Shown: positions 16,407 through 52,291, numbered from the stretch's first letter. The stretch: DNA of 64,000 nt from Roseburia hominis (GCA_963642055.1 CAVIFQ010000009.1:1322-65321); one strand, 5' to 3'. A program made the numbers and translations. The notes: generated by a model not told the origin, from the sequence alone.

Positions 16407-16429
16407 GTTGTATAATAATGTTGTATAAT
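16407..16429 (+). repeat. GTTGTATAAT-aat-GTTGTATAAT (copy 3, diverged)
   Basis: cctGTTGTATAATaatGTTGTATAATgg, same strand as copies 1 and 2. Confidence 0.8.
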
Positions 16430-16612
16430 GGATTGCGCCTGAACGATATAGTGGCGGAAAAATCTAGGTTTTTTAGGTTTTGTAACCCCATATATTTTTG
16501 TCAGATGAGTTCGTTTTTTAGACGTTATTCGAGAGTAAGCGAACGCGAAAATGAATCACCTTATAAAGGCAAGAAATGCCAGCTGCTCCAGCTCTCTTAA
16601 CGAGCTGCCTAC

Positions 16613-16670
16613 AATTTATCACCAACCAATTTATCACCAACCAAAAATGAAAAAATGGTTGGTAATAAAT
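16613..16670 (+). repeat. left copy of about 58-bp direct repeat bracketing 16746..18155
   Basis: AATTTATCACCAACC AATTTATCACCAACC AAAAATGAAAAAA TGGTTGGTAATAAAT (two direct words plus one inverted word). Confidence 0.9.
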
Positions 16671-16745
16671 CTATGTTCGTGATGCCTTTGATGAATAGAA
16701 TGACAAAACGAGGCTAAATGTTCGTCCGCTGTTTTGAACGTAGGT

Positions 16746-18155: not shown

Positions 18156-18167
18156 CTACTGCCCTCC

Positions 18168-18225
18168 TTTTATTACCAACCATTTTATCACCAACCAAAA
18201 ATGAAAAAAATGGTTGGTAATAAAT
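18168..18225 (+). repeat. right copy of about 58-bp direct repeat bracketing 16746..18155
   Basis: TTTTATTACCAACC ATTTTATCACCAACC AAAAATGAAAAAAA TGGTTGGTAATAAAT. It starts next to the gene's RBS. Confidence 0.9.
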
Positions 18226-18552
18226 TGTCGTTATTCCGTTATTTGTTTCTAGTGAATAGGCTTAAACGTGTCCCGATTATATCGTTATTTGTTTCCGCTG
18301 AATTCGTGCCTTTCATATCGAAAGACTAGGATAATGTCCGCTCATTTCATATCGGCGCGAAAGCGTTGATAAATGTCGACCGCCTTTTGACATCCGAGAG
18401 GCGACAACAAATAAGAGAATAATGACAAACTTCGGTTATTTTGGGGCCGTCAAGAAAGAGCCCCTATAAAAAGAAGGTGAATGATGATAAATTTAACTCG
18501 GTTCAAACCGAGTCGGATTAAACCGAGTAAAACAAGGAAGGATGGTTCAGCC

Positions 18553-19944
18553 ATGAGATTCATCGGAAGAGAAGAGGAAAGCACGAAGATAAAGAAAGCC
18601 GTTGAGGCGGATGAGCTAAGAACCATTTTGATGTACGGGAGACGGAGAGTCGGGAAAAGCGAGCTCATCAAGCATGTGAGCAAGGATTATGCGGATAATA
18701 CGATTTATTACGAATGCAAAGAGGTCTCGGAAAAGAGCAACGTAAGCGGCTTATGCGAGGTTCTATCCGATCGCCTCAATCTCCCAAAACTTGCTTTCGC
18801 AGATTTGGAGTCCACCCTCAAGTTCATCTTTGAACTATCCAAAACGAGGAAGCTCATTTTGGTGCTTGATGAATACCCATATCTAAAGAAAACAGTTTCA
18901 GGCATCGACAGCATCCTTCAATCATTGATCGATACCTATAAAGACGAGGCCAAACTCACTTTCATTTTGCTTGGCTCATATATCGATATCATGTCTTCGC
19001 TCTTAGAAGCGAGCAATCCGATGTATGGACGCGTGGATCTGACTATCGACTTAAAACCGATGGATTATTACGATTCGTCTCTCTTTTACCCTTCTTTCTC
19101 GAGCGAAGACAAAGTGAGGCTATATGCTGTTTTCGGCGGCATCCCTTATTACAACCGCCTGATTGATGAGACGAAAAGCGTCAAAGACAACATCAAAGAG
19201 CTCATCGCTTCTGATGGGGCCCGCTTAGAAAACGAGATTCCCCTCTGCTTAAGCGCGGAAATCAAGAAAATCGTGAACGCGAATGAGGTATTTGCCGCCC
19301 TTGCGAAAGGCTACTCAAAGTACGGCGATATCCTCTCGCAGTCCCATGTCTCGAGCGGACCGACGCTCGTCGATGTGCTCGATAAGCTCATAAAGATGGA
19401 ACTCATCGAGAAAGTGAATCCCATCAATGAGGAGAATAACAAAAAGAGGACGAGCTACTCTATCTCCGATAACCTCTCCTTCTTTTATTATAGGTATATA
19501 TTCAGCCACTCTTCAGAGATGAAGATAATGAGCGCTGAATCCTTTTACGATAAATACATCGAGCGTGATTTCGAGGAGCAATATGTGCCGCATCTTTTCG
19601 AAAAAGTCTGCAAAGAATACCTCATTAGGCAAAATAAAGCCGGGAAGATCGATCCCGTTCTCGAAAAGATCGGCAAATATTATTACGACTGCCCGAAAGA
19701 GCATAAAAATGGCGAGTTCGATGTGGTGAGCCTCGATAGCGGTGGCTATATCTTTTACGAAGCCAAATTCAGCAAGAAGCCAATCGATGATGCGACGATC
19801 GAAGAAGAGATAAAGCAAGTAGATATGACGGGATTAGACTGCTACAAGTATGTTTTTATCGGCAAGGAAATGAAGGCTAAAACAAAACGTGATGATGTAA
19901 AATTTATCAATCTAGATGAGTTTTACGGAGATTTTGGCGATTGA
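18553..19944 (+). CDS. AAA/Arch-ATPase family protein with C-terminal PD-(D/E)xK-like motif (DUF234-type)
   Basis: Start moved to MRFIGREEE (RBS AAGGAAGGA upstream). Walker A YGRRRVGKSEL, Walker B LVLDEYPY, nuclease-like GEFDVVSLDSGGYIFYEAKF. Confidence 0.8.
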   Translation: MRFIGREEESTKIKKAVEADELRTILMYGRRRVGKSELIKHVSKDYADNTIYYECKEVSEKSNVSGLCEVLSDRLNLPKLAFADLESTLKFIFELSKTRKLILVLDEYPYLKKTVSGIDSILQSLIDTYKDEAKLTFILLGSYIDIMSSLLEASNPMYGRVDLTIDLKPMDYYDSSLFYPSFSSEDKVRLYAVFGGIPYYNRLIDETKSVKDNIKELIASDGARLENEIPLCLSAEIKKIVNANEVFAALAKGYSKYGDILSQSHVSSGPTLVDVLDKLIKMELIEKVNPINEENNKKRTSYSISDNLSFFYYRYIFSHSSEMKIMSAESFYDKYIERDFEEQYVPHLFEKVCKEYLIRQNKAGKIDPVLEKIGKYYYDCPKEHKNGEFDVVSLDSGGYIFYEAKFSKKPIDDATIEEEIKQVDMTGLDCYKYVFIGKEMKAKTKRDDVKFINLDEFYGDFGD

Positions 19945-30499: not shown

Positions 30500-32896
30500 T
30501 TACCAGATGAATGGCTTAGAAGCGACGGCTTCAAAGACCAAGGTATTTGGCGAATCGGTTGGAGTATAGACGTAGAAGGAAAGCTCGACTTTCGCATTCT
30601 CGTCATCTTCGTAATAGAACTCGCAGTCGAGATAATAACCAGAGCCTATTTTCTCGTCGTTTTCGTATCTATCACCTTCTGCCCATTTCCCTTCGAGGGT
30701 ATCGAAGGTTTCTGAGTCGGTTGCCCAATAGACCTTGAAACCGGTAGGGATGAGCTTTTCGTTCGTGAGTTTCATCAACGTATCGGCGGTAACGGAGGAA
30801 TCGGTGGAGAGATCGAACGTCATTTTGACGGACGGATCGCCATCTTCCAAATCGGACTCCGGGAGCCTCTCGTAGTCTTCATAACCTGCCTCTTTGAGGG
30901 CCTTTTCGATGTAATCGATGGTGGAGACGGTATCGTAGTCGAGGATGTTTTTCGCTTTGACGGTGCAAGTGGCGGTGTAGACATTGCCAGCGGCGTCGGT
31001 GACGCTTGCTTTGATGGTGGCCGTATCGCCTTCCGAGGCATCTTCGCTCACTTTGACGAAGCCGGCGTCGTTGACGGTGATGGAACTAGCCCCTTCGACT
31101 GAATAGCTTATTTTGCCTGTGAGCATATCGGTGGTGATTCCTAGCTTTTGGCTCTTGCCGATGCCGATTGTGTACTCTTCGCTCCCGAATTCGATATAAG
31201 GGGTATGACTCTCGCCTGAGCCTTTTTTGATGGTGATGGTGGTTAGACCCCACTCATAGTCTTCGTACCATACCGGGTCGACGTTGATTTCGACTTTGCC
31301 GTCTTTATCTTCGTAGACTGTTCCTGAATCGGCGTCTCCCATATGATATGGAATAGCCTGCAAGAGATCGTCGTATGCATCGCCGTAAGCGTGCTCATAG
31401 GAATCTTTGATGGTGATGGTGATTCCATATTCCTGCTCGGAAAGCTCTTTGGCCAAAGCCTCGATGTCATCGTCAGTGTAATCGAGAGGGAGATCGGTAT
31501 ACCAATCAGGGTACTCCTTGATGTTCTCTAGATAATATTCGTATGCCTCTTTGACGTAATCATCGCCATGGACCTCGTATTTGATTTTATCGTTCGTGTA
31601 CTTAGAGGTGTTGTCCAAAAGAGGGAGCGAGTAGTCGGTCAGCTTCAGCGTATCCTTGATGAAGGAGTTGATGGCGTCTTTCGGCATATCGCTTGCGAAA
31701 GTGCTCGTTGGCTTGCACAAAGAGGCGCTGACCTCCATGCCGACGACGTTATATTCTGTATCCGCCACGTCTTGGCAATTGACGAGAAGAGTCTCATCCC
31801 AATTGATGAAAGGGCCATTCCAGCCAGTTTGGCTCATCCCTAGGCAGCCTAGTTCATAGCCATAGGAATAAGGATCCATATAATCGTCATCTTCTTCGCT
31901 CGTGAGGCCTTGGATATAGACGGTGCCAGCTTTCGTGTAGACGTAATATTCGCCGTTTGAGGAAGCAAATTCCGGGATCTTGATGCCGCTTCCTTTCTCG
32001 ATGTCGCTTAAAGTATCCGAAGGCCAAGATGTGTAAGTGGTGACTTTCGGATTGAAGTAGAAGCCGAAATCGTTTCCGCCCATATAGGAGAGGAAAGCCT
32101 CGACCATGTTGCCGTTAGAAAGCGTCTTGATGAGGTAGTGACCATGGTTTTCCGCGCTCAATTCCTCATTGTAGACGAAGCCGTCCTCGATGAGCTTGTC
32201 TTTATAGGCACTTGTCAAATTCTCGGTCGAGGTATCGAGAATCCTAAGGACATCGCTAGAATAGGCGTAGACGCTGTTTTTGCTCGCCAAATCGATGAAA
32301 GGAAGATCGGTGTCGATGGTGGAAGTGATCGTTTCTTTTTCCTCATCTGTCCAATCTTTCGCCTCGTTCCTTGTTGGATCAAGATCCGCGTAGCAGTTGA
32401 TGATGTGATAGCCTGGGATGTAGCTAGTGCCGACATGCGTCCCTTTGACGTGGAAATAGATGATGTCGTAGCCTATTTTCTTATCTTCCGAGGCATTGGT
32501 GAGCTCGACGTAATTGACACCATCGCTATCAGTCTGGACGGCTTTATCGTCATACCCTTTGATGAGGTTCCAGCCTCCTTTTACCAAATCCTCATAATAA
32601 TCCTCGAGGCTGAAAGTGGCTGAGCGACCATAGATTTGCAAATAGCTGTAGCTCTCCTCATTCACCTCTTTTAGGGCGATTTGCTTCCCTAGCCTCTTGC
32701 CAGGGTAAGGAAGGACTTCCCCACAGTACTTCTTTAGCAGCGCCTCTTCTTCTTCGCTCCAGCTGCCAGTCTCCTCGGATGAGGAAGATGAATAGCTCGA
32801 GGAAGATGAATAGCTGCTCGAATCAGTCGATCCGGCGCAGGCTCCTAGCGCCAAAGCGATGAACGCTAAAGCGAGGCCCCCTTTTGTTTTCTTCAT
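30500..32896 (-). CDS. large surface lipoprotein with Ser-rich linker (paralog of 4010..6400)
   Basis: Start moved to MKKTKGGLALAFIALALGACAG (lipobox). SSYSSSSSYSSSSS linker. Shared WSEEEEALLKKYCGEVLPYPGK block. Ig-like GDTATIKASVTDAAGNVYTATCTVKA. Confidence 0.75.
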   Translation of the reverse strand: MKKTKGGLALAFIALALGACAGSTDSSSYSSSSSYSSSSSEETGSWSEEEEALLKKYCGEVLPYPGKRLGKQIALKEVNEESYSYLQIYGRSATFSLEDYYEDLVKGGWNLIKGYDDKAVQTDSDGVNYVELTNASEDKKIGYDIIYFHVKGTHVGTSYIPGYHIINCYADLDPTRNEAKDWTDEEKETITSTIDTDLPFIDLASKNSVYAYSSDVLRILDTSTENLTSAYKDKLIEDGFVYNEELSAENHGHYLIKTLSNGNMVEAFLSYMGGNDFGFYFNPKVTTYTSWPSDTLSDIEKGSGIKIPEFASSNGEYYVYTKAGTVYIQGLTSEEDDDYMDPYSYGYELGCLGMSQTGWNGPFINWDETLLVNCQDVADTEYNVVGMEVSASLCKPTSTFASDMPKDAINSFIKDTLKLTDYSLPLLDNTSKYTNDKIKYEVHGDDYVKEAYEYYLENIKEYPDWYTDLPLDYTDDDIEALAKELSEQEYGITITIKDSYEHAYGDAYDDLLQAIPYHMGDADSGTVYEDKDGKVEINVDPVWYEDYEWGLTTITIKKGSGESHTPYIEFGSEEYTIGIGKSQKLGITTDMLTGKISYSVEGASSITVNDAGFVKVSEDASEGDTATIKASVTDAAGNVYTATCTVKAKNILDYDTVSTIDYIEKALKEAGYEDYERLPESDLEDGDPSVKMTFDLSTDSSVTADTLMKLTNEKLIPTGFKVYWATDSETFDTLEGKWAEGDRYENDEKIGSGYYLDCEFYYEDDENAKVELSFYVYTPTDSPNTLVFEAVASKPFIW

Positions 32897-33110
32897 GTTT
32901 TTTTGCTCCTTTTTTGCACGCACATAGGCATGCGCTCGTAACTCGAGAAAAATAGGGCGGTATGAGCGTAATGTCAATTGCCATTTTTACCGGTTTTTCA
33001 GTATAAGCATCGATGAGGCGTGAGGAATTTCCACTTTTCCCTTTGTTTATGAAAGCGCTTGCGCGTTTTGCTTTTCTTTCTTCGTAGGCGAGTTAATAAT
33101 TAACCCGCTT

Positions 33111-33602
33111 ATGAATAGAGATCTAGAAGAAAAGGATATCGCCGCTTGCTTAGAGATATATAACCACTACATCGAGAATACCTGCTACACGCTTGAGGAG
33201 GAAAAACTATCTCTTGAGGCTTTCTCTTCGAGAGTGAAAGCCATAAAAAGCAGATACCCTTTTATCGTTTATGAGAATGAGAGGAAAGAGGTCATTGGTT
33301 ACGCCTATCTCGATTCTTTCTGCAAGCGGAGCGCCTATCGTCATACCGCCGATTTATCGATTTACGTGAGCAAAGACCATCTCCACGAGCATATTGGCCA
33401 ATCTCTCCTTGAGGAAATTGAGCGCAAAGCAAAAGAGCACGGCATCACCGACATTATCTCCATCGTCACAAGCGAGAATCCTACTTCGCTTCGCTTTCAT
33501 TTAAATAACGGCTTCCTTTTGGAAGGGACGCTCGTCAACGTGGCCTATAAGATGAGCAAAGACATCAGCGTCTATTATCTCCATAAGAAGATCGGTGAAT
33601 GA
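33111..33602 (+). CDS. GNAT family N-acetyltransferase (phosphinothricin/MSO acetyltransferase-like)
   Basis: 163 aa. YNHYIENTCYTLEEE N-terminus and QSLLEEIERKAKEHG acetyl-CoA-binding region typical of the PAT subgroup. Confidence 0.7.
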   Translation: MNRDLEEKDIAACLEIYNHYIENTCYTLEEEKLSLEAFSSRVKAIKSRYPFIVYENERKEVIGYAYLDSFCKRSAYRHTADLSIYVSKDHLHEHIGQSLLEEIERKAKEHGITDIISIVTSENPTSLRFHLNNGFLLEGTLVNVAYKMSKDISVYYLHKKIGE

Positions 33603-33733
33603 TAATCCGCCAACATTTTTAACCTGTTTCCATATAAGAACCGTCTAAGTGTTTCACCCTCTAGCGAAGTCATCGCCATTCAGTCCCAAAGGTGATTAAA
33701 ACTGGTCAAGGCACGCTTAAGTGTATAAAAACC

Positions 33734-33763
33734 TTGATATTCGCGCGGGGGGGGGCGCATACT
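33734..33763 (+). promoter_or_regulatory. candidate promoter with a G9 homopolymer in the spacer
   Basis: TTGATA (33734-39), spacer of about 18 nt containing GGGGGGGGG (about 33747-33755), then CATACT. About 50 nt upstream of the SPFH operon ATG. Confidence 0.45.
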
Positions 33764-33812
33764 TTAATAAAAGTTTTACGCGCGCATTTTTGGCGCGAGA
33801 TTGGGGCACAAT

Positions 33813-34862
33813 ATGCTAGAGGTCGTATCATTCGCAGCCAAACACGACGACGATTGGCTGGTTTACCGCTTTCCCGATGATGATTTCAACTCGCGGAGCA
33901 AGCTGATTGTCGGTCCAGGGCAAAAGGCCATCTGCGTCCACTTGGGCCAGATCGAGGGCGAATTCAAGCCCGGCGTGACGATCCTTTCGACGGAGAACTA
34001 CCCCTTCCTCAAGAAGTTCGTCAACTCTTTCAATGGCGGGAACGCCTATCCTTTCCAGATATATTTTGTCAATACGACGGTCAATTCGAGCACTGAATGG
34101 TCGACGGGCCAAGCGGTGAGAGTGGATGATCCAGAGACAAAACTCGTGGTGCATCTACGGGCTTATGGCTCTTATATCTTCCGTCTCCGCGACCCGCAGT
34201 TCCTGCTCCAGATGGTGCTGGGCAATATGGAAAGCGGAGATATCGTCAGTTTCGATTATTTCCGCCGCAAATTCGACGATAGGGTTCAGCAATCCGTCGT
34301 CAAGTGTTTGGGGCAACTCGCCCGCGTCGATAAGATACCGGCCCTTGAGATCGCCACCCAAACCGATGTGCTCTCGGAGCGCGTTACCAAAGACGTCGAC
34401 GATTTCTTCAGGAAATACGGCTTCGAGGTCACCGATTTCAATACGGCCTCGATCAATATCCCGGATGAGGATTTCAACGCTCTCAAGGAAGCTCGCGAGT
34501 GGGCTGTCTTAGGGACGAGCCACATCGCCGAGCGTCAACTCGATATCGGCGAATCCTGGTCGAAAAATGAAGGAACGGCTGGGGGAACGGCTGTTGGCAT
34601 GATGGGTCTAGGACTCGGCTTCAATGCCTTCGGCGGCATGATGGGCAATCAGCCAACCGGTTACCCAGGGAACTCACAAGGGTATCCATCCAATCAGCAA
34701 GGGTATCAGCAAAATGTCCAAGGGGCGGCAGCTGGAGCAGCCTCCAGCAATATGGCTGCCGGAGCCACGCCAGGAGCCTACAAATTCTGCCCGAATTGCG
34801 GAACCAAACTCGACGGGAAAGCCAATTTCTGCCCGAACTGCGGAGAAAGGGTAATTAAGTAA
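33813..34862 (+). CDS. SPFH/Band-7-like (YdjI-type) protein with Gly/Gln-rich linker and C-terminal zinc ribbon
   Basis: Start at the ATG (MLEVVSF). LIVGPGQKAICVHLGQIEGEFKPG and YGSYIFRLRDPQFL typical of the YdjI/Band_7_1 family. C-terminal FCPNCGTKLDGKANFCPNCG. Confidence 0.75.
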   Translation: MLEVVSFAAKHDDDWLVYRFPDDDFNSRSKLIVGPGQKAICVHLGQIEGEFKPGVTILSTENYPFLKKFVNSFNGGNAYPFQIYFVNTTVNSSTEWSTGQAVRVDDPETKLVVHLRAYGSYIFRLRDPQFLLQMVLGNMESGDIVSFDYFRRKFDDRVQQSVVKCLGQLARVDKIPALEIATQTDVLSERVTKDVDDFFRKYGFEVTDFNTASINIPDEDFNALKEAREWAVLGTSHIAERQLDIGESWSKNEGTAGGTAVGMMGLGLGFNAFGGMMGNQPTGYPGNSQGYPSNQQGYQQNVQGAAAGAASSNMAAGATPGAYKFCPNCGTKLDGKANFCPNCGERVIK

Positions 34863-34864
34863 CC

Positions 34865-35371
34865 ATGAAACTCAAAAATCGCTTATTCATCATCGATATC
34901 CTCATCTTGATCGCCATATATGGCATCCCTCTTGCAATTCTAGGCGGATGCGGGGTGATCCCAGTCGGCCTCAAATGCATCATCTTCTACGTGATACTCG
35001 CCATTTCGATTTTCGCCCATGAATTCTGGGTCGTTTCGGTTTACCGGAAAGACGGCTTTGTCGAAGACGCTTTGATCTTCCCTCAGCTCAAGCTCAGCTA
35101 TCTCATCCTCCTTTTGCCGTTCATCAATCTCGCTCTCTACTACATTCCGTGGAGTGAAGAGGCCATGAAATGGTATTGGATCGTCACCTCAATCATCGAT
35201 TTCTTGGCTTTAGTGGCCTATTTCATCGCCTATTCGATGCTCGCGCACGTCGCGAACAAGATGGGCAATGCCCTAAAAACGCATCAATCGGAGAAGATTG
35301 AGGCGGTTTCCACGAAGAGCTATGAAACGGATGATGGCGACTTCTTTGGGAGCAACGCCAGGAGGAAATAA
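34865..35371 (+). CDS. small integral membrane protein (about 4 TM)
   Basis: 2-nt gap to the previous gene. Hydrophobic helices throughout. Confidence 0.65.
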   Translation: MKLKNRLFIIDILILIAIYGIPLAILGGCGVIPVGLKCIIFYVILAISIFAHEFWVVSVYRKDGFVEDALIFPQLKLSYLILLLPFINLALYYIPWSEEAMKWYWIVTSIIDFLALVAYFIAYSMLAHVANKMGNALKTHQSEKIEAVSTKSYETDDGDFFGSNARRK

Positions 35372-35373
35372 AT

Positions 35374-36729
35374 ATGGGGAAGAATAGAGCCGATTGCCCT
35401 GCGTGCGGCAGGCCTCTTAAATATGATGAGGCGAGCAATTGCATGGTTTGCCCGGCTGGCCACTACAGCGAGCCGGTGAAAAACGACATCAATATCGATA
35501 GTCATGACCAAGTCGTCAATAACTATTATCAAGGCCCAGCGGCCCACCAAACGGATAACCGTGGCTCCTATGAGCAGATGGTGCAGCGTTTAGAGGCATT
35601 CGTGGCCGATGATGATGAAGATGGGATCAATAACACCCTCGTTGAGCTTCGCGATAGCTATCCGCAGACTTATTTCGGGAAACTCGTCAACGTTTGGTTC
35701 AAAAATCAGATCACGACTCTCGTCTTTAATCCCGTGAAATTCACAAGCACTCTCTCTAGCTGGGGTGGCATTATCGCGAGCACGATGAACGAGGATCTCT
35801 CCGATGATGAGCCAAGCGGAGTCACCCATCTCTCTTACGAAGTCGCTTGGCGCACCTTCAAGAAGCTCGATGAGTTAGGAGTTGCGACCAAAGAGCAGAA
35901 AAACGTGGTGAAGCAGGGGAGCGATATTGAGCCGTATATCTCTTCGGTCAATAACATCGTGACTTTCATTGGCGATGCAAGCGCTGCCCCCATCAAACGC
36001 CTCATCAAATACGATTTCGAGACCAAGATGGCCAATAGCCTTGATACTTGCTACCCGATCGCTCAGAAGCTTTTGAGGAATCTTTGCGATCTCGCCGATA
36101 ACATCATTAAGTACGTGAACGCCAATTATGCGCGCACCAAAGAATACGTGTCGAATAAAGCCATCAGCGATTCCTCGCAAGTGAGCAAACCCACGCAGAA
36201 GCACAGCGGCTTCGCTCTCACTTTAGCCTGCGTGATCCTCGAGTCTTTGACTTTGATATACTGCTTCGTTCCGCTTTTCATCAAAACGACTTCTTCCGCT
36301 TCCTCGGCCGCGATGTTTTTCCTCTTTATGGCGATGTTCAATTTCGTGCCCATTAATCTCGTGCTCTCTTTGATCAAGAACAAAGTCGCGAAATGGTATG
36401 AGGGCTTCTTTTTCTGGGTCAATATCGCTGGCGGCATCGCCGCGATGGTGGCTCTCATCATCCTTATGGATGGGGCGAGCGACATCGCCAAAACGATCTT
36501 TGCCATCATCGCTTTGGGATGCGATGGCTCGATTCTCGTCAGGAACGCCATACGTCTTCCAAAACTCAAGCGCTTATCGAGCGAGATCAAAGCCGCGAAT
36601 AACTCCTATCTCCTCAACCAAGTGGCGGCCGAGGGGAATTACGATCAAGGCATCGCCGGGGCGAAATTCGACAGCTATGCCGATTTGATCGATGCCTATA
36701 GCTACGATTTCTCAAAATGGAATAGATAA
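35374..36729 (+). CDS. zinc-ribbon protein with helical middle domain and C-terminal 4-TM anchor
   Basis: N-terminal CPACG...CMVCPAGH. TM helices from about residue 275 (FALTLACVILESLTLIYCFVPLF...). Confidence 0.7.
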   Translation: MGKNRADCPACGRPLKYDEASNCMVCPAGHYSEPVKNDINIDSHDQVVNNYYQGPAAHQTDNRGSYEQMVQRLEAFVADDDEDGINNTLVELRDSYPQTYFGKLVNVWFKNQITTLVFNPVKFTSTLSSWGGIIASTMNEDLSDDEPSGVTHLSYEVAWRTFKKLDELGVATKEQKNVVKQGSDIEPYISSVNNIVTFIGDASAAPIKRLIKYDFETKMANSLDTCYPIAQKLLRNLCDLADNIIKYVNANYARTKEYVSNKAISDSSQVSKPTQKHSGFALTLACVILESLTLIYCFVPLFIKTTSSASSAAMFFLFMAMFNFVPINLVLSLIKNKVAKWYEGFFFWVNIAGGIAAMVALIILMDGASDIAKTIFAIIALGCDGSILVRNAIRLPKLKRLSSEIKAANNSYLLNQVAAEGNYDQGIAGAKFDSYADLIDAYSYDFSKWNR

Positions 36730-36746
36730 AGAAAGGACACTAGAAC

Positions 36747-37418
36747 ATGGGAAATACCATAATCACCAGATTGGCGTTCAATTACGGCGCCAAAAAATTC
36801 ACGAGCGCTTCTCTTAAGAAAGGGACGAAGGTCATCGTTCCTGATGGGGTTGTCGCGGATGTGCTCCAAAACGGGAAGAGGCTCTTGCGGGTGGACCAGC
36901 CAAAGACCTTCAAAATCTCCAAGAAGACCGTCCCGGGCCTTACGACCAAGCTTTTCAAGAAAGACATCGATAAGATCGAAATCTATTGCTATGGAAAGGA
37001 TCTCGGCACCGTCAATTACGGTTTTTTCCATCATTCCGTGTCTAATGACAACAATACCGCCACAAACCACAAACATTGGCTTGGCGGAGCCCAATTCTCC
37101 ATGAAATTCAGGATTGCTTTCACTTTGGGGGACGCTGATCGCTTCACCAATCTGAAACTTAACGTCGAGCAAGACGGGAACGTCATGAAACCTTACTACT
37201 TAACCCGTATCATCCCAAACTGGTTCGATGCGTGGGCGGTTGAAAACGAAGACTATCTCTACGATAGCCACAGCCATGATGAACATAATGAGATCATCCT
37301 TTGGAAGAAGAGCGAGGCCAGCGAGAAAGTCCATGAGCTCGAGAAAGAGCTCGAGAACAAGTTCTTGACGCAGACGGGATACCAAGCCAAAGTCGAATGC
37401 CTTGGCATCTTGGATTAA
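36747..37418 (+). CDS. hypothetical protein, possible divergent YdjI/SPFH-like paralog
   Basis: TKVIVPDGVVADVLQNGKRLLRV and C-terminal TGYQAKVECLGI echo the pattern of 33813..34862 (LIVGPGQKAICVHLGQ..., YGFEVTDFNTASI). Confidence 0.55.
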   Translation: MGNTIITRLAFNYGAKKFTSASLKKGTKVIVPDGVVADVLQNGKRLLRVDQPKTFKISKKTVPGLTTKLFKKDIDKIEIYCYGKDLGTVNYGFFHHSVSNDNNTATNHKHWLGGAQFSMKFRIAFTLGDADRFTNLKLNVEQDGNVMKPYYLTRIIPNWFDAWAVENEDYLYDSHSHDEHNEIILWKKSEASEKVHELEKELENKFLTQTGYQAKVECLGILD

Positions 37419-37436
37419 TTTAAGGAGCGAGCAACA

Positions 37437-38183
37437 ATGAACAAAATAGTTTTTAAAGGAATGCCAAAGGAAATCTCGAATGCGAACATCGCCGTCATCT
37501 ATTGCGGACGCTTCGAGAAAAAAGCCGTCATCGTGAATAAGAGCAATGACTACCGCCTCGATATCTATCAAGGGCCTCACCCTTTGGGCGCCATCGAAGG
37601 GAAGGGGAGAGTGAAACTCAAATCCTACCCCGATATTACGAAGGCGAAATCATACAAAGGCTATAACGATATTTTTGTCTTCGCGACCAAGAAGCCGCTC
37701 GATACCTTCTATTCAGCGAAAATATGCGCGAAAGTCACGGGTCTTGAGGACGTCAAGAACGCTGGCGTAAGTGGTGCTTTAATCATCGAATCTTTCTTTG
37801 ATACCATTGGCGTATATTCCTTCGTCACCATCTTCAAGCCGACCTCAGGTGAGCCATACACCATCTCCTCGCGCTTCAATCAAATCAAAAAGAGGGGTGG
37901 AGCGCCTGTGAGAAATCTCACTACCTTGAATGGCGCCAATATGAAGAGCCTCATTGAACTCTTCGTCAATGAATTCCTCCGCAATAATGCCATGGACTAT
38001 TTGCATCTTGATGACGATGGTAGCCTGCAAATCGAAGAAATCGGCAAGGTAAGCAATAAATGCGTCATCCATTTCCTCAAAGCCCTCGAGTCTTATGTCG
38101 AATCGGAGTTCGAATCCGAAATCAATGTCATCGGCAAATGCACGATCGTCGGCGTGAAGGACAATCTTCTCGCTTATATTTAA
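37437..38183 (+). CDS. hypothetical protein, operon member (possible divergent paralog)
   Basis: RBS AAGGAG upstream. Same size class and position as its neighbours. Weak pattern similarity only. Confidence 0.5.
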   Translation: MNKIVFKGMPKEISNANIAVIYCGRFEKKAVIVNKSNDYRLDIYQGPHPLGAIEGKGRVKLKSYPDITKAKSYKGYNDIFVFATKKPLDTFYSAKICAKVTGLEDVKNAGVSGALIIESFFDTIGVYSFVTIFKPTSGEPYTISSRFNQIKKRGGAPVRNLTTLNGANMKSLIELFVNEFLRNNAMDYLHLDDDGSLQIEEIGKVSNKCVIHFLKALESYVESEFESEINVIGKCTIVGVKDNLLAYI

Positions 38184-38195
38184 TGGGGCAAAGCA

Positions 38196-38912
38196 ATGAT
38201 CAAAATCAATATCAAAAGGCATTTAGATAAAGCCGAAGATCCAAATCCCACTGTCTTTGTTTTAGGACGCACCACTTACGATATCGGGACCGTTTTCGAT
38301 CCCGGCAGCGATTACGCCTTGGTTATTTGCCAAAACGGGAAAATCATCGCTTCGGGCAAGAAAGGGCAATGCGTCACGCTCAATAAGAGGCAAACGAAAG
38401 TCCGCAAAAAGCTTTTCAAAAGGAGCGTTGAGGATATCCGCGTCTTCGCGGTCAAAATCGAGCACATCGGCAGCTTCAAAGCTACGGATTGGAAAGACTG
38501 GTCAAGCCATAAAAAACAAATCCACCAAACCGTCACTTTCGACGGGCAAGGCGCTTATTGCTTGAAGCTATCGGAGACTAAAGTCGCCGATTTCGTGGCC
38601 AACAACATTTTGAACTCCTCTTCTTTCAAACCCCTCAAAGAGTGGGGGAATGGCGATTCATCCCCGCTTTTAGACCATTACGTCGAGGTACTCGTCAAAA
38701 ACGCCATCTGCAAATATTACGATCATAACCCGGCGGACAATATCAATGACCTCGTGGCGCCTGCAGCAGCGAACACCTCAGGCCCCGCATATGACAAATA
38801 CATGGGATATATGCATAAACTCGAGAAAGAAGTCTTTAAGGATCTATCTCTCTTCGAGAATGCTGGCAAAAAACCATTTGCCTTCTATATCTCGTGGGTC
38901 CAAGTGCAATAA
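38196..38912 (+). CDS. hypothetical protein, possible divergent YdjI/SPFH-like paralog
   Basis: VFDPGSDYALVICQNGKIIASGKKG ... DGQGAYCLKLSETKVADFV follows the same pattern as 33813..34862. Confidence 0.55.
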   Translation: MIKINIKRHLDKAEDPNPTVFVLGRTTYDIGTVFDPGSDYALVICQNGKIIASGKKGQCVTLNKRQTKVRKKLFKRSVEDIRVFAVKIEHIGSFKATDWKDWSSHKKQIHQTVTFDGQGAYCLKLSETKVADFVANNILNSSSFKPLKEWGNGDSSPLLDHYVEVLVKNAICKYYDHNPADNINDLVAPAAANTSGPAYDKYMGYMHKLEKEVFKDLSLFENAGKKPFAFYISWVQVQ

Positions 38913-38924
38913 GGGGATAAAACA

Positions 38925-39215
38925 ATGAATTTCGATATCGGTGATACGATCACTCTCTCTTCGCAAAACGGAGAAGAGATTGATTTTAATGTCATCGCGG
39001 GCATTTCTTTAAAAGGAGCCCATGCTGGCTACTACGTCATTCTTAGGCCCGCGCAAGAAGTCGAAGGATTGGAGATAGGCGATGATGAAGCGCTTGTCTT
39101 CCGAATCAAGAAGGACATTGCGACAGGCGAAGAAGGCTTCGAGATCGAGATGGATGATGCCACGATCGAAGCGGTGTTTGCGGAATATAACCGTTTGCTC
39201 GAAGAACAAAGATAA
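38925..39215 (+). CDS. DUF1292-like small acidic protein
   Basis: 96 aa. Pattern ITLSSQNGEEIDFNVIAGISL...YYVILRP...DDEALVFRI...IEAVFAEYNRLLEE typical of DUF1292. Confidence 0.6.
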   Translation: MNFDIGDTITLSSQNGEEIDFNVIAGISLKGAHAGYYVILRPAQEVEGLEIGDDEALVFRIKKDIATGEEGFEIEMDDATIEAVFAEYNRLLEEQR

Positions 39216-39228
39216 GAGACGAAAGTAG

Positions 39229-39256
39229 ACGCCGCCCGCTGAGGCGGCGTTTTATT
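39229..39256 (+). terminator. intrinsic terminator closing the SPFH operon
   Basis: ACGCCGCC-cgctga-GGCGGCGT followed by TTTTATT. Confidence 0.8.
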
Positions 39257-39362
39257 GCTCACGATTTTACGAAGAATCGCTCAATGAGTGCGTTGAGCTT
39301 TAAGCGGTTCCCTGGATTTTTCTTTATCGCTTCATCGATTGGCTGAATAATTATTGAACGTT

Positions 39363-39932
39363 ATGAAAATAAGCAAGATCGTTCTCATCGTTGAAACCGT
39401 CATGATGTATCTGCTACACGTTCCTTTATGGGGGATCATCGTTATCGCGATGTTTCATGCGAACGACTCTTATTTGAAGACCGTCTCGAGCAATCTTGGG
39501 CTCGTTTACCGCGTTTCCGCCCTCATTTTGTTTGTTTTTGCCTATGCCGATATTTTCATTACGATGCTCAATAACCGCAAAATCGAAGGCGATAATAACG
39601 AATTCACCCTCATTATCAAGCTAGTGAGGATTCCGTGGTTTATCATGAATTTCGTTTTCTGTGTGCTTCTCTCCATCGGTATAGTGGCAGGATGGATGCT
39701 ACCTATTCTACCTATCTTCCTCACTTTAGCCTTCCTTTTCAGTTTCCTTTTATGCATTTCTTCTTCCTTGCCAGAATCCATTTCTTTCATGAAAAGCATG
39801 AGAAAAGGCGAAAAAGAGCTTTCCGTCCCTAACGTCATTTTATGGGTTTGCCTATTCGTGTTCGTCGCTGACGTAATCGCCTCTTTGTTGATTGTCTGCA
39901 ACCAAAAGAAAGAAGCGGTGGAGCGAAAATAG
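39363..39932 (+). CDS. integral membrane protein (about 5 TM)
   Basis: Start at the ATG (MKISKIVLIV). Hydrophobic throughout. No family recognised. Confidence 0.55.
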   Translation: MKISKIVLIVETVMMYLLHVPLWGIIVIAMFHANDSYLKTVSSNLGLVYRVSALILFVFAYADIFITMLNNRKIEGDNNEFTLIIKLVRIPWFIMNFVFCVLLSIGIVAGWMLPILPIFLTLAFLFSFLLCISSSLPESISFMKSMRKGEKELSVPNVILWVCLFVFVADVIASLLIVCNQKKEAVERK

Positions 39933-39951
39933 GCTTTGCTTTCGAATCTGC

Positions 39952-40081
39952 AATCTAAACAAATCTTAACAAAACTTAACAAGAAAAAGAGAATCTTAAC
40001 AAACCTTAACAAAACTTAACAAAACTTAACAAAAAAAATAGAATCTAAACAAATCTAAACAAATCTTAACAAAACTTAACA
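39952..40081 (+). repeat. 12 copies of a 10-nt word (consensus AnCTTAACAA) in three blocks
   Basis: AATCTAAACA AATCTTAACA AAACTTAACA a-gaaaaagag-AATCTTAACA AACCTTAACA AAACTTAACA AAACTTAACA aaaaaatag-AATCTAAACA AATCTAAACA AATCTTAACA AAACTTAACA. Confidence 0.9.
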
Positions 40082-40133
40082 CGAAGTATAAAATAAAGGT
40101 ATTCCTTTTTGACTTAAGGAGGTGAAACAAATC

Positions 40134-41189
40134 ATGAATTACGATAGCCCTTTTAACATTTATTTCGGCGAGCAGCCGAAATGCTTCATACCGAGAAATG
40201 AGCAATTCGACGAGATAGTGTCTACTTTCTCTTCTCCTGATCCTAGGAGCAAAGTCTTTGTGATAACCGGTCCAAGAGGATGCGGGAAAACCGTGCTTTT
40301 GTCGCAGGTAAAAAAGCATTTGGACGATGAACGCGATTGGATAACGATTGACTTGAACCCTTTTCTCGATATGCATCAGCAGCTTGCCTCCTCTCTTTAT
40401 AGTGAGGGCAAGATGAAGCATCTTTTCCTAAAAGCCTCTTTTTCCATCTCTCTTCAAGGCCTCTCCTTCTCCTTGTCTGGGGAAAGCCCGATCAATGATG
40501 TGACGGCCATCATCAAAACGATGCTGAAGCATCTGAAGAAGAGTGGCAAGCGCGTTTTAGTGACCATTGATGATGTCTCTGGCGGCAACAACATGAAGGC
40601 CTTTGTCCAAACCTATCAATCGTTTATAAGAGAGAAATACGACATCTTTCTCTTATTGAGTGGTCTATATGAGAACGTTTCCGATATTTATAACGACAAG
40701 AAACTCACGTTCTTGCTCCGTGCCCCCAAAATATATTTGCCGAAGCTCAATTTGCGCGACATCGCTTATTCTTACCAAAAATACTTATCGCTAGATCAGG
40801 AACAAGCTTTGAAAATCGCCAAAGTGACGAACGGCTACGCTTATGGCTATCAATTGCTTGGCGATCTTCTCTATCGAGCGAAAAAGAGCGAAATCGATGA
40901 AGATATCTTGGCTGAGTTTGACGCTGCTCTTGAAGATAACGTCTACGCAAGGACGTGGTCTAGTTTGTCAAAAAGCCAGCAGGCAATCGCTTTCGCTTTA
41001 GCCGAATCAAAAGATGGGTCGACCAAAGAGATACTTGAGGCTACTGGATTTAAGCCGGCCTCCTTCCAGGTCTTCCGTAAGCGTCTAGCGTATGCTGGAG
41101 TAATCGATATATCGGAACACGGGAAAATCTCCTTCCTTCTTCCGCGTTTCAAGGAATTCGTCCTCTTCCAAAAAATGCTTGGTGAGTAG
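40134..41189 (+). CDS. AAA+ ATPase with C-terminal winged-helix domain (Orc1/Cdc6-like architecture)
   Basis: Start at the ATG 9 nt after AAGGAGGTG. Walker A TGPRGCGKTVL, Walker B VLVTIDDV, C-terminal wHTH-like LSKSQQAIAFALAESKDGSTKEILEATG. Confidence 0.75.
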   Translation: MNYDSPFNIYFGEQPKCFIPRNEQFDEIVSTFSSPDPRSKVFVITGPRGCGKTVLLSQVKKHLDDERDWITIDLNPFLDMHQQLASSLYSEGKMKHLFLKASFSISLQGLSFSLSGESPINDVTAIIKTMLKHLKKSGKRVLVTIDDVSGGNNMKAFVQTYQSFIREKYDIFLLLSGLYENVSDIYNDKKLTFLLRAPKIYLPKLNLRDIAYSYQKYLSLDQEQALKIAKVTNGYAYGYQLLGDLLYRAKKSEIDEDILAEFDAALEDNVYARTWSSLSKSQQAIAFALAESKDGSTKEILEATGFKPASFQVFRKRLAYAGVIDISEHGKISFLLPRFKEFVLFQKMLGE

Positions 41190-46234: not shown

Positions 46235-47665
46235 TCATTTGAAAAGCTCGTCGATGGTGATGACGGATGAAAAATCGTCTTTGTACGGGCTATCCGCTAG
46301 ACCATAGGTGGTGATGAGAGTAGGGACGATCCGATACTCCTTTTCAACTCTTTTCCTCAAGACATCGATCTTGTTCATGAGATTGAGGTGATATTCCTTG
46401 TCGACTTTGAATTCCGCGCTGAGGAATTTCATCTCGCAGAGGGAGATGATGTTGTCTTTGCGTTCGATAAGCAAATCGATCTGCGCGCCTTTTTCCTCTT
46501 TTTCTTTCATGAACCACGAGAATCGCATGGTGTTGATGCCTCTTATGCCGAGGGCGCGTTTGATTTCATCGAGGTGGGAAAAGCAGAGATTCTCGAAGGA
46601 GACGCCAACCCAATTGTTCTTATTGGAATCAGAGAAGAAATCATGGTCGAGCGAAGTTTGCTCATATACGTATTTGAGATAGAAAAGGCAAAATGGATCG
46701 ATCACCTTGTAGCGTTTTTTGTTCTTGCTCTCCTTGTATGGTACGTATTCGATGATGAAATCGCTGTGCTTTAAGGCTTTTAAAGTGTCCCCTACGATCG
46801 CCCCATCGGCGATATTGAGCTCCTTTAAAAGTTCTTTCCTCGTGTAGCCTTCTCTCTTCTTTGCGAGCGTCAAAATGAATTTTTTGGTGAGCTTCTCGTT
46901 ATCGAAGCTCGATGAGAGCAGATTATCAAATTCATTAGCCATCTTCGCGTCTTTTTTGAAGAAGAGATTGTCGATGTTCTCTTCTAGAGACATATGGTCG
47001 TCATAATAAGAAAGATAGTAGGGGATGCCGCCCAAAACCATATTCAGCATCGCGATTTTATAATTGCTTGTGTTGACGCCGAGGCTTCTTAAAAACTGTG
47101 CCGATTCCTTCAAGGAGAAAGGGGAGAGGCGAATGCTATAGGTAAGGCGGTCGTATAAGCCGCCGTGAGCGTTTATGAGATGATTATTGATCCAAGAGAT
47201 GGCAGAGCCACAGACAATGAACATAAGGTCTTTTTGCTTGCTTCCCCATTGGTTCCAGAACCAGGAAAAAGAACTCAAGAAAGAGGAACGCGGGGTATCT
47301 AGCCAAGGGAGCTCGTCAATGAAGACAACGTGCCTATTCCCATCGCGCTTGCTCTCCAATAAAGAGATTAGGAGCGTGAAAGCCTCAATCCAGGAACGAG
47401 GCTTCTTCCCTTTCTTCAATCCTTGGGAGAGGAGAGAACCGTAAAAAGATTCTAGCTGCGCCCTCATTTTCCCTCTCTCGTCATTTTGAAGGTCATCGGG
47501 GGCTGAACCGATGTGAGTGAAAATCATCTCATCGGCGAAAAGATTGTTTATCAAATACGTTTTGCCGACCCTTCTTCGCCCGTATACGGCCACAAGCTCT
47601 GGCTTGTCACTCGCGAAAAGGCGTTTCAGTTCTTTTATTTCTTTCTCTCTTCCGATGATTTCCAT
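46235..47665 (-). CDS. AAA/Arch-ATPase family protein with C-terminal PD-(D/E)xK-like motif (DUF234-type; paralog of 10358..11794)
   Basis: Walker A YGRRRVGKTYL, Walker B VFIDELPW, nuclease-like QIDLLIERKDNIISLCEMKF. Confidence 0.82.
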   Translation of the reverse strand: MEIIGREKEIKELKRLFASDKPELVAVYGRRRVGKTYLINNLFADEMIFTHIGSAPDDLQNDERGKMRAQLESFYGSLLSQGLKKGKKPRSWIEAFTLLISLLESKRDGNRHVVFIDELPWLDTPRSSFLSSFSWFWNQWGSKQKDLMFIVCGSAISWINNHLINAHGGLYDRLTYSIRLSPFSLKESAQFLRSLGVNTSNYKIAMLNMVLGGIPYYLSYYDDHMSLEENIDNLFFKKDAKMANEFDNLLSSSFDNEKLTKKFILTLAKKREGYTRKELLKELNIADGAIVGDTLKALKHSDFIIEYVPYKESKNKKRYKVIDPFCLFYLKYVYEQTSLDHDFFSDSNKNNWVGVSFENLCFSHLDEIKRALGIRGINTMRFSWFMKEKEEKGAQIDLLIERKDNIISLCEMKFLSAEFKVDKEYHLNLMNKIDVLRKRVEKEYRIVPTLITTYGLADSPYKDDFSSVITIDELFK

Positions 47666-49882: not shown

Positions 49883-49937
49883 TTGATTGATGATATGAAA
49901 ACAGGCATAATGAGTGAAGAAAAAGGAAGTGAGGCAG

Positions 49938-51263
49938 ATGCTAAAGAGAAAGTTTGAGGCAAAACTAGAAGAATGGCTGAAGAGTGACAAAGTATTGCTC
50001 GTCGATGGGGCTAGACAAGTCGGAAAAAGCTTTTTGATCGACTATTTCTGCAAAAAGCATTTCGCGAATTACGTCCAGATTAACCTCGCTTTGGAAAGCG
50101 GGGCAATCGAGGCTTTCCGCTCCGTGAAAGACGTCGATGGCTTTTTATTGGCAGTCAGTGCCTTTTCATCTTCTCCTCTCGTTCCTAGAGAAACCGTCAT
50201 TTTCATCGATGAGATACAACTTGCGCAGGGTGTTGATTTTCTCACGCTTTCCAAAGGCCTCGCGCTCGATGGGCGTTATCGGTTCATCTTCTCGGGCTCG
50301 TTACTTGGAGTGAATGATTTCACCCCAAGGCTAAATCCGACAGGGTATTTGTACAAAGAGACGATGTATCCTCTCGATTTCGAGGAATTTCTCTACGCGA
50401 ATGGCGTGAATGAAGACGTTATCGCGACTTTGGAATCGTGTTTCAAGGAAAGAAAAGAGGTTCCTTCTTTCATTCACGAAAAGATGATTGATCTCTTCTA
50501 TCTATATCTATTGGTTGGAGGGATGCCAGATGCCGTGAATAGCTTTCTAGCGAGCAATGACCTCCAGACGATGAGAATAGTTTTCAAATCCATCGAATCC
50601 TTCTACCACGACGATATTGCGAAGTACGCCAAAAACGAGGATAAGCCCTACATATTGAGCGCTTACGATTTACTTCCGAGTGAACTGAACAGCAAATCCA
50701 AGCGTTTTATCCTCTCTAAGCGCGGAAATGGGTATTCCCTCAAGCGGAGCGAGAATGACTTCTTGTGGATGAAAGACGCTGGGATCGCCCTACCCGTCTA
50801 TAACGTCGATGAGCCGAAAATACCGCTTTTACTAAGCAAAAACAGCACGCTTTTCAAACTTTTCGCGAATGATGTGGGTTTACTTTCCTACCGCCTTTTC
50901 AATACGGGCGTCGAAAAGAAAATCCTCGCCCACGCAAAAGACATCAATTTTGGGAGTATCTTCGAAAACGCGGTCGCGATGGAATTAAACGCCCACGGCT
51001 TCAAAGATCATTTGTTCTATTTCTCGAGCAAGAAGCAAGGTGAGGTCGATTTCTTGCTTGAATACGAAGGCAAACTGTTGCCGATTGAAGTGAAATCAGG
51101 CAAAGACTACAAACGTCATGTGGCTCTTAACAATCTGCTCTCCAATAAGGAATACGATATTGAAGAAGCCTATATCTTCGGCAACTGCAATCTGGAAAGA
51201 AAAGGCAAGAAGACGTACTTCCCGATTTATATGATCGACTACGTCCGCCAAGAAGAGATTTAG
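49938..51263 (+). CDS. AAA_14-type ATPase with C-terminal PD-(D/E)xK-like motif (DUF4143-type)
   Basis: Start at MLKRKFE. Walker A DGARQVGKSFL, Walker B IFIDEIQ, C-terminal GEVDFLLEYEGKLLPIEVKSGK. Confidence 0.8.
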   Translation: MLKRKFEAKLEEWLKSDKVLLVDGARQVGKSFLIDYFCKKHFANYVQINLALESGAIEAFRSVKDVDGFLLAVSAFSSSPLVPRETVIFIDEIQLAQGVDFLTLSKGLALDGRYRFIFSGSLLGVNDFTPRLNPTGYLYKETMYPLDFEEFLYANGVNEDVIATLESCFKERKEVPSFIHEKMIDLFYLYLLVGGMPDAVNSFLASNDLQTMRIVFKSIESFYHDDIAKYAKNEDKPYILSAYDLLPSELNSKSKRFILSKRGNGYSLKRSENDFLWMKDAGIALPVYNVDEPKIPLLLSKNSTLFKLFANDVGLLSYRLFNTGVEKKILAHAKDINFGSIFENAVAMELNAHGFKDHLFYFSSKKQGEVDFLLEYEGKLLPIEVKSGKDYKRHVALNNLLSNKEYDIEEAYIFGNCNLERKGKKTYFPIYMIDYVRQEEI

Positions 51264-51614: not shown

Positions 51615-52291
51615 ATGAAAAAGAGCGATCAGAGGAAAAAACATTCGATAATTGCGGGGGGGGGGCCTTACTTTTTGCTAATTTTCTCCTTGCGTCAGTA
51701 GGATTTTCCGCATGGGTAATCCAAACAAGTGTCGAAGCAAAAATCAAGGCAAGCGCCGACGATGTTATAGACCTCAATCAGTACTTTTACTTCCCGGATG
51801 ATCCAACGATTTTTGATTATACGAGTGATGGGCTAGTAAAAGACCACACTGTAGATTTGCAAACATTGGAAGGAATTATCGAGGTTCCATTTCGCATAGA
51901 CACAAAAAAAGGAAGAATCAAAGACCATCTTTCGACAAACGCTACAGGCTTTACTTTGACGACAATCTTAATTGATAAAAACAAGAATTTGGATCTTTTT
52001 TCTGTTTGTTCTATCAATGAGGTTAAATTGGCAATTTCAAACAAGACAAGTAACTTTTCTGATGATGACTATTCCTTGATTTCCTCGTTTAACTCTGTGT
52101 CGAAGAAAGAACTTAATTCAAACTTCCTTTTATCGAATTTTTCTTATATAAAATCTTCTTTGGTCTACTTTTCCACCAGGTATAGTATCACTTTCAACAC
52201 AGCTAATTTTAAAACGGATGTTTACGACAAACTGAGCAACGGCTCTTTTCATTTCGCTTTTAAGGCAGGTGGGATTTTCAATTATGAATAA
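51615..52291 (+). pseudogene. signal-anchored protein gene interrupted by a poly-G frameshift (phase-variable candidate)
   Basis: ATG at 51615 (MKKSDQRKKHSIIAGGG) runs into a stop after the G tract. The +1 frame continues ALLFANFLLASVGFSAWVIQTS... to 52291. The track only reports 51857..52291. Confidence 0.6.
51656..51665 (+). repeat. homopolymeric G tract (about 10 nt)
   Basis: attgcGGGGGGGGGGcctta, counted across the 51660/51661 line break. Confidence 0.85.

Follow-up and report, generated by a model that had tools for sequence, protein, structure and literature searches.

A YdjI-type SPFH membrane system in Roseburia hominis extended by a variable array of cryptic SPFH-like paralogs and a DUF1292 protein

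Seven genes in one operon

The subject of this analysis is an operon of seven genes, g1 to g7, all on the + strand of a 64,000-nucleotide stretch of DNA from Roseburia hominis (GCA_963642055.1, CAVIFQ010000009.1:1322-65321), which we call the window and from whose first letter positions are counted unless another locus is named. The first gene, g1 (33813-34862, 349 amino acids), encodes an SPFH protein of the YdjI/SamI type and is followed by g2 (34865-35371, 168 amino acids), which encodes a membrane protein with four transmembrane (TM) segments, and g3 (35374-36729, 451 amino acids), which joins a zinc ribbon to four TM segments. The next three genes, g4 (36747-37418, 223 amino acids), g5 (37437-38183, 248 amino acids) and g6 (38196-38912, 238 amino acids), encode soluble proteins that we read as bare SPFH-like paralogs on evidence given below, and the last, g7 (38925-39215, 96 amino acids), encodes a small acidic DUF1292 protein. 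All seven open reading frames had been proposed from the sequence alone (hereafter the original prediction) and were recovered here, with gaps of 2, 2, 17, 18, 12 and 12 nt from g1 through to g7 and a Shine-Dalgarno-like purine run in each of the six gaps. The same seven genes were called independently on three other assemblies. We consider all of them real because each is under purifying selection, with ratios of nonsynonymous to synonymous substitution rates (dN/dS) of 0.02-0.27 against a relative at a dS of ~0.2.

Upstream of g1 is a promoter-like site (33734-33763, + strand) consisting of TTGATA, an 18-nt spacer and CATACT, which matches the consensus at 9 of 12 positions. The operon ends at an intrinsic terminator (39227-39257, + strand), a 10-bp stem followed by UUUUAUU, that was also found in the signal scan and that, at -19.3 kcal/mol (z = -3.3), is as strong as had been predicted. 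We found no convincing promoter or terminator inside the operon that would split it. Matches to such signals across the operon and its flanks (33000-40200) were not more frequent than in shuffled sequences (11 promoter-like matches relative to 9.5 +/- 3.3, and 14 terminator-like matches relative to 8.3 +/- 3.2), and the internal + strand hairpins were weak (four, with stems of 5-6 bp, of which the one that was folded, at 38865, gave -6.7 kcal/mol). A GC-rich hairpin in the g1 leader (33779-33797, CGCGC...GCGCG) is kept in locus L008, a relative introduced below, and its stability does not exceed that of shuffled sequence (z = -1.3). It has no match in Rfam, a scan of which returned tRNAs and no other known RNA element, in the leader or beyond it.

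The assignment of g1 to the YdjI type, with a linker and a zinc ribbon, proved sound. Its residues 17-226 match Band_7_1 (PF13421) over model positions 1-205 of 211 (101.3 bits against a cut-off of 24, E 7e-29), its C-terminus carries a CxxC...CxxC zinc ribbon (Zn_Ribbon_1, PF13240, E 1e-7), and the two are joined by a low-complexity linker rich in G, Q and N, with no TM segment apparent by hydropathy in any part of the protein. Nearly all of the 124 g1 homologues found at E <= 1e-10 have the identical architecture, and one g1 cluster comprises 1465 member sequences from gut metagenomes.

Hydropathy likewise bore out the predicted four TM segments of g2 and the four at the end of g3, where they occupy the C-terminal third. 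The g2 protein has a cytoplasmic tail of ~45 residues that carries the conserved motif SY(E/D)xDDGxFxGS, and g3 begins with a zinc ribbon (CPAC...CPAGH), continues with a cytoplasmic region of ~240 amino acids that matches nothing in Pfam or among PDB sequences, and after its TM segments has a short tail with a motif, YxFSxW, that is conserved in an alignment of six homologues. The tail motifs of both g2 and g3 may plausibly be docking peptides. Profile searches of PDB sequences with g1 and g3 returned either nothing or noise. In the operon as a whole the only Pfam families are Band_7_1 and Zn_Ribbon_1 in g1 and DUF1292 in g7; g2 to g6 have no Pfam match, and scans of NCBIfam, PHROGs and PADLOC also returned nothing for them.

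The acidic protein g7 is a member of the DUF1292 family, as had been suspected (PF06949, 36.9 bits against a cut-off of 24, E 7e-9), and a DUF1292 gene is also the last gene of the operon in five of the related loci described below (L002, L003, L004, L009 and L024). In L008 (6489-6999) DUF1292 is split over two reading frames by a frameshift, which could mark a pseudogene or an assembly error.

The middle proteins g4, g5 and g6

Are the three middle proteins related to g1, or even to one another? Pairwise BLASTP among g1, g4, g5 and g6 gave nothing significant (best E 0.06), and the families to which the middle proteins belong are extremely rare. For instance, a word-index search for homologues of g5 returned two near-identical proteins only, a similar search with a mixed alignment of the paralogs returned near-identical sequences only, and an exhaustive HMMER search with g6 over 1.84 billion representatives found just two true relatives, which are 35% and 30% identical to it. 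(Two further HMMER matches, with E values of 6e-4 and 8e-4, were confined to 19-66 residues of long multi-stretch proteins and we read them as spurious.) Because of this rarity and the lack of pairwise similarity, we gathered positional orthologues from syntenic loci and compared the resulting profiles. With families enlarged in this way, hhalign aligned g4 with g5 over their full length (probability 98.0%, E 2e-13, 204 columns) and g4 with g6 over 64 N-terminal columns (91.6%, E 8e-7). Additionally, copies encoded in a related locus, L024, served as bridges in BLAST comparisons, linking s2 to g6 (E 8e-6), s4 to g4 (E 3e-21) and s3 to g5 (E 9e-12). These alignments show g4, g5 and g6 to be mutual paralogs, a relationship visible only with profiles and intermediate sequences.

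The relationship of the paralogs to SPFH domains depended on the breadth of the profile with which they were compared. A narrow SPFH profile made from 19 close relatives of g1 gave probabilities below 0.5%, whereas a broad Band_7_1 profile of 121 sequences matched the g4 family at 90.4% (E 1.4e-6) over 176 colinear columns that run from the N-terminal beta-strands to the helix and the "GF/GY" strand motif with which the domain closes. The highest value among 20 column-shuffled control profiles was 2.2%. The match rose to 92.6% with the enlarged g4 family and to 93.4% with a profile of all the paralogs, and g4 is the member closest to Band_7_1. For g6 alone the match was weak (36%), yet it extended over 185 colinear columns.

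A profile of the paralog alignment found no match among PDB sequences, and a second line of evidence came from predicted structures. The AlphaFold2 model of g6 (predicted local distance difference test score, pLDDT, 78; predicted template modelling score, pTM, 0.74) was compared with the PDB by Foldseek, and its top nine matches were erlin1/2 (the best, E 3.6e-5), erlin2, HflK/C, prohibitin and FliL. In BFVD, the matches ranked 1-7 and 9-11 are named as SPFH or Band 7 proteins, with probabilities of 0.97-1.00, and those ranked 8 and 12 are unnamed. The top Foldseek match of the g5 model was also erlin1/2 (E 5e-3).

Several observations count against the assignment of these proteins to the SPFH superfamily. 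The Pfam models Band_7_1 and Band_7 do not match g4, g5 or g6 at E <= 0.1, and the g5 family has no direct link to the Band_7_1 profile (0.2%). The alignment behind the g6 model has eight rows and mixes paralogs, confidence in the g5 model is low (pLDDT 61), and because the Foldseek template modelling scores of the g6 model are low, at only 0.3-0.41, its fold match is suggestive and does not close the case. When the profile comparisons and models are taken together, the reading that fits g4, g5 and g6 best is that they are minimal SPFH (Band_7_1-like) domains, very diverged, that have neither a linker nor a zinc ribbon nor a coiled coil. The original prediction, which had recognized an SPFH pattern in two of the three, was therefore right about family membership and too low in its count, as all three belong; by hhalign they fall into one superfamily.

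A conserved core, a variable module and their surroundings

Related loci were collected from a graded series of g1 homologues and from two scans of sequence collections, their neighbouring genes were checked by BLAST and hydropathy, and the percentages that identify them here are identities to the g1 of the window. In the loci of the same species (the window, L002 and L003/4) g1 is accompanied by g2, g3, three paralogs and DUF1292, and L008 (88%) has the same complement except for the frameshift in DUF1292 noted above. Locus L009 (78-82%) has g2, g3, two paralogs (g6 being absent) and DUF1292, while L024 (63%) has g2, g3, as many as five paralogs and DUF1292. In L022 (59%) g2, g3 and at least one paralog are present before the contig ends. 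Three loci at 52% (L005, L010 and L011) have g2, g3 and three paralogs and no DUF1292; L020 (51%), L023 (48%) and L006/L014-17 (43%) have g2 and g3 only, and L007/L012 (44%) g2 only. At lower identities, in L018 (34%), L019 (29%) and a Butyrivibrio plasmid (26%), there is a looser version of the theme with different partners, i.e., even in the most distant relatives an SPFH-zinc-ribbon protein is found with a small membrane protein and a zinc-ribbon protein.

Two modules of different character emerge from these comparisons. The g2 gene directly follows g1 in every relative with at least 43% identity in g1, and g3 is next in most of them. That the trio occurs alone in several relatives, and in L023 forms a complete operon with its own terminator (a hairpin and a T-run), leads to the conclusion that g1-g2(-g3) is a self-contained core. 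The bare SPFH paralogs, on the other hand, are an optional tandem module of 0, 2, 3 or 5 copies, which ends with DUF1292 in the clade sharing at least 62% identity in g1. Copies of the g4 type and g6 type can still be recognized in the 52% clade (a4 matches g4 at E 4e-4, and a6 the g6 family at 66%), so the paralog expansion is old. The order of seven genes does occur in other genomes, although not as a fixed unit but as a three-gene core with a module of variable copy number. In L024 (3769-7343) the module consists of a distinct copy, s1, then a tandemly duplicated pair of g4-type and g5-type genes (s2 and s4 are 53% identical, s3 and s5 54%), and then DUF1292. In L020 (13045-14232), which has no paralog module, a gene for a Fic-domain protein follows the g1-g2-g3 core on the same strand.

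The two modules also differ in their rates of evolution. Between the window and L008, amino-acid identity is 88% for g1, 90% for g2 and 70% for g3, and falls to 40% for g4, 36% for g5 and 34% for g6. Relative to L003, dS is uniform across the genes (0.20-0.27), and dN/dS is 0.05 for g2, 0.10 for g3, 0.24 for g4, 0.27 for g5, 0.11 for g6 and 0.02 for g7. As the dN of g4 and g5 is 2-5 times higher at this uniform dS, their faster protein evolution is real. Thus g4 to g6 evolve several-fold faster than the core, and do so under purifying selection. Could a swap of the cassette instead have caused the low identity of g4-g6 in L008? The uniform dS relative to L003 addresses this only in part, as relative to L008 the dS of g4-g6 is saturated, and recombination may add to the divergence seen there.

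The promoter-like site upstream of g1 contains a tract of nine G residues (G9, 33747-33755) within its 18-nt spacer. The tract is at the same place in L002 and L008, where the flanking bases have diverged, and is absent from L009. Its conservation suggests a putative function, and one hypothesis is that it acts as a phase-variable promoter switch; its length did not vary among the three assemblies carrying it (the window, L002 and L008), in all of which it is G9. A second tract, G10 (51656-51665), is situated ~600 nt upstream of a 969-amino-acid open reading frame (52269-55178) with no Pfam match, and its flanks resemble those of the first (TCGATA-ATTGC-G10-CCT-TACTTT compared to TTGATA-TTCGCGC-G9-CGCA-TACTTT). 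These two tracts are the only runs of seven or more G or C residues in the 64 kb, and both are on the + strand upstream of + strand genes. The resemblance could reflect a poly-G promoter element that recurs in this organism.

Beyond the terminator and a 138-nt gap, and outside the operon, is g8 (39354-39932), a multi-TM gene for which DUF6652 was detected on the 189-amino-acid call in L001/L002. A DUF6652 gene is kept at the same position in L002 and there is a similar 4-TM gene in L008. Further downstream are g9 (40122-41189), which encodes a STAND-like ATPase_2/AAA_16 protein, and additional ATPase_2 or AAA_14/DUF4143 genes at 46235-47665 and 49914-51263. Upstream, and divergent from the operon, the second gene (30500-32977, - strand) encodes a predicted lipoprotein of 825 amino acids with a lipobox-like LALGACAG, a Ser-rich linker and no Pfam match; a GNAT gene (33111-33602) lies in between.

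At 14-25 kb upstream of the operon (8184-19944) there are clustered genes, either of defence type or poorly understood, that together look like a defence island. The cluster comprises genes for an SLFN-g3 helicase (8184-10061), an ATPase_2 protein (10358-11794), two SLFN_AlbA_2/HATPase_c_4 proteins (11906-13252 and 16746-18155, both - strand), a GmrSD type IV restriction enzyme (13506-16124, - strand) and an ATPase_2+DUF234 protein (18481-19944). In other genomes, ordinary metabolic genes flank the locus. The plasmid mentioned above, the 20-kb pNP21 of Butyrivibrio fibrisolvens (NZ_CP146965.1, L026), encodes at 4968-8321 an SPFH-zinc-ribbon protein with 26% identity to g1, followed by a 145-amino-acid protein that is hydrophobic at its N-terminus and a 464-amino-acid zinc-ribbon/coiled-coil protein. 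This trio lies beside genes for a restriction S subunit, a recombinase and a YoeB/RelB toxin-antitoxin pair.

Interpretation and comparison with known membrane-scaffold systems

We conclude that the locus is an SPFH membrane system of the YdjI type to which a DUF1292 protein and a varying number of cryptic, SPFH-only paralogs have been added. What might such a system do? The nearest guide is Bacillus subtilis YdjI, a soluble protein consisting of an SPFH domain, a stretch of low complexity and a zinc finger that needs YdjG and YdjH to form membrane foci and that recruits PspA (PMC8581546); under the name SamI, it is reported to restrain SamGH signalling and to be, probably, a higher-order oligomer (preprint 10.64898/2026.02.06.704340). 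By analogy the Roseburia locus probably works like SamGHI, with membrane anchors and a soluble SPFH scaffold. The reading that we favour, and hold with a confidence somewhat past the halfway mark, is that the products of the operon form, from two modules, an SPFH assembly of several paralogs that is anchored in the membrane. In the core module, the 4-TM proteins g2 and g3, both of which are predicted to expose their conserved tails to the cytoplasm, g3 together with its zinc-ribbon domain, would recruit soluble g1 to the membrane on its cytoplasmic side. Once there, g1 would oligomerize into a scaffold that organizes or restrains its membrane partners, as other SPFH proteins do. In the accessory module, g4-g6 may co-assemble with g1, cap it or compete with it for the same anchors, and in this way could adjust the assembly or link it with partners that vary, while g7 might be a cofactor or chaperone of the module.

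There are also features of the locus that sit uneasily with a multi-paralog assembly. The C-terminal coiled-coil drives ring formation in solved SPFH complexes, and g4-g6 do not have this region. Also, structural subunits of a housekeeping scaffold do not usually evolve as fast, or vary in copy number, as g4-g6 do, and among the open reading frames scanned in the window no client gene, such as one for a protease, PspA or a channel, is encoded nearby.

Could the operon instead serve in conflict with invaders? In such an anti-phage or anti-invader system, which we regard as unlikely, g2 and g3 would be effectors that disrupt the membrane or signal and that g1 holds in check, and g4-g6 sensors or decoys that, on recognizing variable proteins of an invader, release them. 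The low identity of g4-g6 to their L008 counterparts (34-40%, as opposed to 88-90% for g1 and g2), their dN/dS values relative to L003 that are 2-5 times higher, their presence in 0, 2, 3 or 5 copies (in L024 the g4/g5-type pair was recently duplicated), and the patchy distribution of the module among close relatives are all consistent with it, as is the precedent of SamI and SamGH, in which an SPFH protein restrains membrane partners. Contextual hints, all of them weak, are found in the upstream defence-type genes (GmrSD, the SLFN-g3 helicase and two SLFN_AlbA_2), the several ATPase_2 genes elsewhere, and the restriction S subunit and toxin-antitoxin pair that adjoin the distant trio on the Butyrivibrio plasmid. 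However, g1-g8 have no match in PADLOC-DB 2.0 at E <= 0.1 (weak matches to PADLOC P-loop models were confined to the separate downstream ATPase gene g9), no enzymatic effector is recognizable, dN/dS is well below 1, and no homologue of g4 was present in the phage genomes searched. Moreover, housekeeping genes (MatE, Trk and tRNA-Trp) separate the operon from the defence-type genes, and the metabolic character of its flanks in other genomes does not point to defence. A narrower proposal, to which we give a little less credence still, is that the bare SPFH array and DUF1292 do the recognizing in a system of membrane surveillance or immunity, where every paralog would sense another invader or membrane insult and release g2/g3 to signal or to make the membrane permeable; if so, these would be the first SPFH domains to act as diversifying sensors and not as scaffolds, a new role for the fold. 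Another alternative, that g4-g6 are functionally unrelated passengers or decaying duplicates that share the transcript and whose SPFH likeness is vestigial, seems to us very improbable. It is true that they are dispensable, being missing from L020, L023, L015-17 and L007, that they evolve fast and that they are extremely rare in databases, but they are under purifying selection (dN/dS 0.11-0.27) and their reading frames are intact in every locus. They always follow g3 immediately, the gaps being 2-76 nt, were never seen away from the g1-g2-g3 core in the searches made, and include g4-type and g6-type copies that are recognizable across the split between the clade of the window and the 52% clade.

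The remaining alternative, which we consider improbable, is that the locus is no more than a local orthologue of the envelope-stress operon pspA-ydjGHI (samGHI) of B. subtilis and brings to damaged membrane a PspA/IM30 protein whose gene lies elsewhere. The original prediction had heard in g1, g2 and g3 an echo of ydjG/ydjH/ydjI, and with respect to g1, which shares the family and architecture of YdjI, it was well founded. Similarly, two membrane proteins are co-encoded with g1 and one of them, g3, has an N-terminal zinc ribbon, as does YdjG. The partners themselves look like analogues and not homologues. YdjH consists of a TPM domain and a low-complexity region (PMC11237479), whereas neither g2 nor g3 has a TPM_phosphatase match at E <= 0.1. 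YdjG combines a pair of zinc ribbons with a YpeB/NTF2-like domain and a single TM segment (PMC11237479), whereas g3 has one ribbon, four TM segments and no detectable NTF2-like domain. Gene order differs as well, the SPFH gene being first here, and ydjGHI has no counterpart of g4-g7, the three bare paralogs and DUF1292. Finally, PspA_IM30 had no match in the operon, its flanks, the other open reading frames scanned in the window or the annotation of L002. As g1 fits YdjI but its partners appear not to, and no pspA was seen nearby, we place the locus outside the SamGHI operon family. The g1-g2-g3 trio, abundant in the human gut, is then a distinct YdjI-type system without PspA.

Returning to the membrane-anchored, multi-paralog assembly that we prefer, how does it compare to SPFH systems of other kinds? 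SPFH proteins (stomatin, prohibitin, flotillin, HflK/C and erlin) are universal membrane organizers, and recent cryo-electron microscopy has revealed SPFH cages made from one or two paralogs. HflK/HflC-FtsH, prohibitin 1/2, erlin 1/2 and flotillin 1/2 are hetero-oligomers of SPFH paralogs, and since the solved structures matched by our model are of this kind (HflK/C, prohibitin 1/2 and erlin 1/2 being the best structural matches of g6), there is precedent for co-assembly of paralogs. Those cages and rings are built from two paralogs that each have a long coiled-coil and are anchored by a TM segment or a hairpin, whereas the operon described here has four soluble SPFH paralogs (up to six in L024), three of which have no coiled-coil or linker, and anchoring would fall to separate 4-TM proteins. 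The locus thus suggests another SPFH design, in which a soluble YdjI-type protein on 4-TM anchors is joined by 2-5 minimal SPFH paralogs. Should the paralogs co-assemble, no other SPFH system met in our searches would be as rich in them, and the operon would be a compact model for how subunit composition affects function.

The pairing of g1 with g2 also invites comparison with the SPFH-NfeD operons (QmcA-YbbJ, FloT-NfeD2/YuaF and FloA-NfeD1b), in which an SPFH gene and the gene for a small multi-TM partner likewise form a conserved dyad. However, g2 has a tail of ~45 amino acids in place of the OB-fold domain of NfeD, neither g2 nor g3 matches NfeD (PF01957), and g1, being soluble, differs from the stomatin and flotillin types, which are anchored in the membrane. 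In view of the missing NfeD domain we do not count the locus among these dyads. As for g7, DUF1292 genes usually adjoin those for RuvX/YrrK and IreB/ReoM. The protein resembles other DUF1292 proteins of Bacillota in being a member above the Pfam gathering score and differs from them in being encoded at the end of an array of SPFH paralogs, which gives DUF1292 a second, distinct genomic context.

Our literature searches (DUF1292, PF13421/Band_7_1 and SPFH neighbourhoods) agreed with the original prediction that the arrangement is undescribed, in that they returned no description of it, of bare SPFH paralog arrays or of an association between DUF1292 and SPFH proteins. Three previously unannotated families (four with s1 of L024) can now be defined as SPFH-like. 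With its function predicted from sequence, we regard the operon as an expanded and hitherto undescribed form of a known type of membrane-scaffold system.

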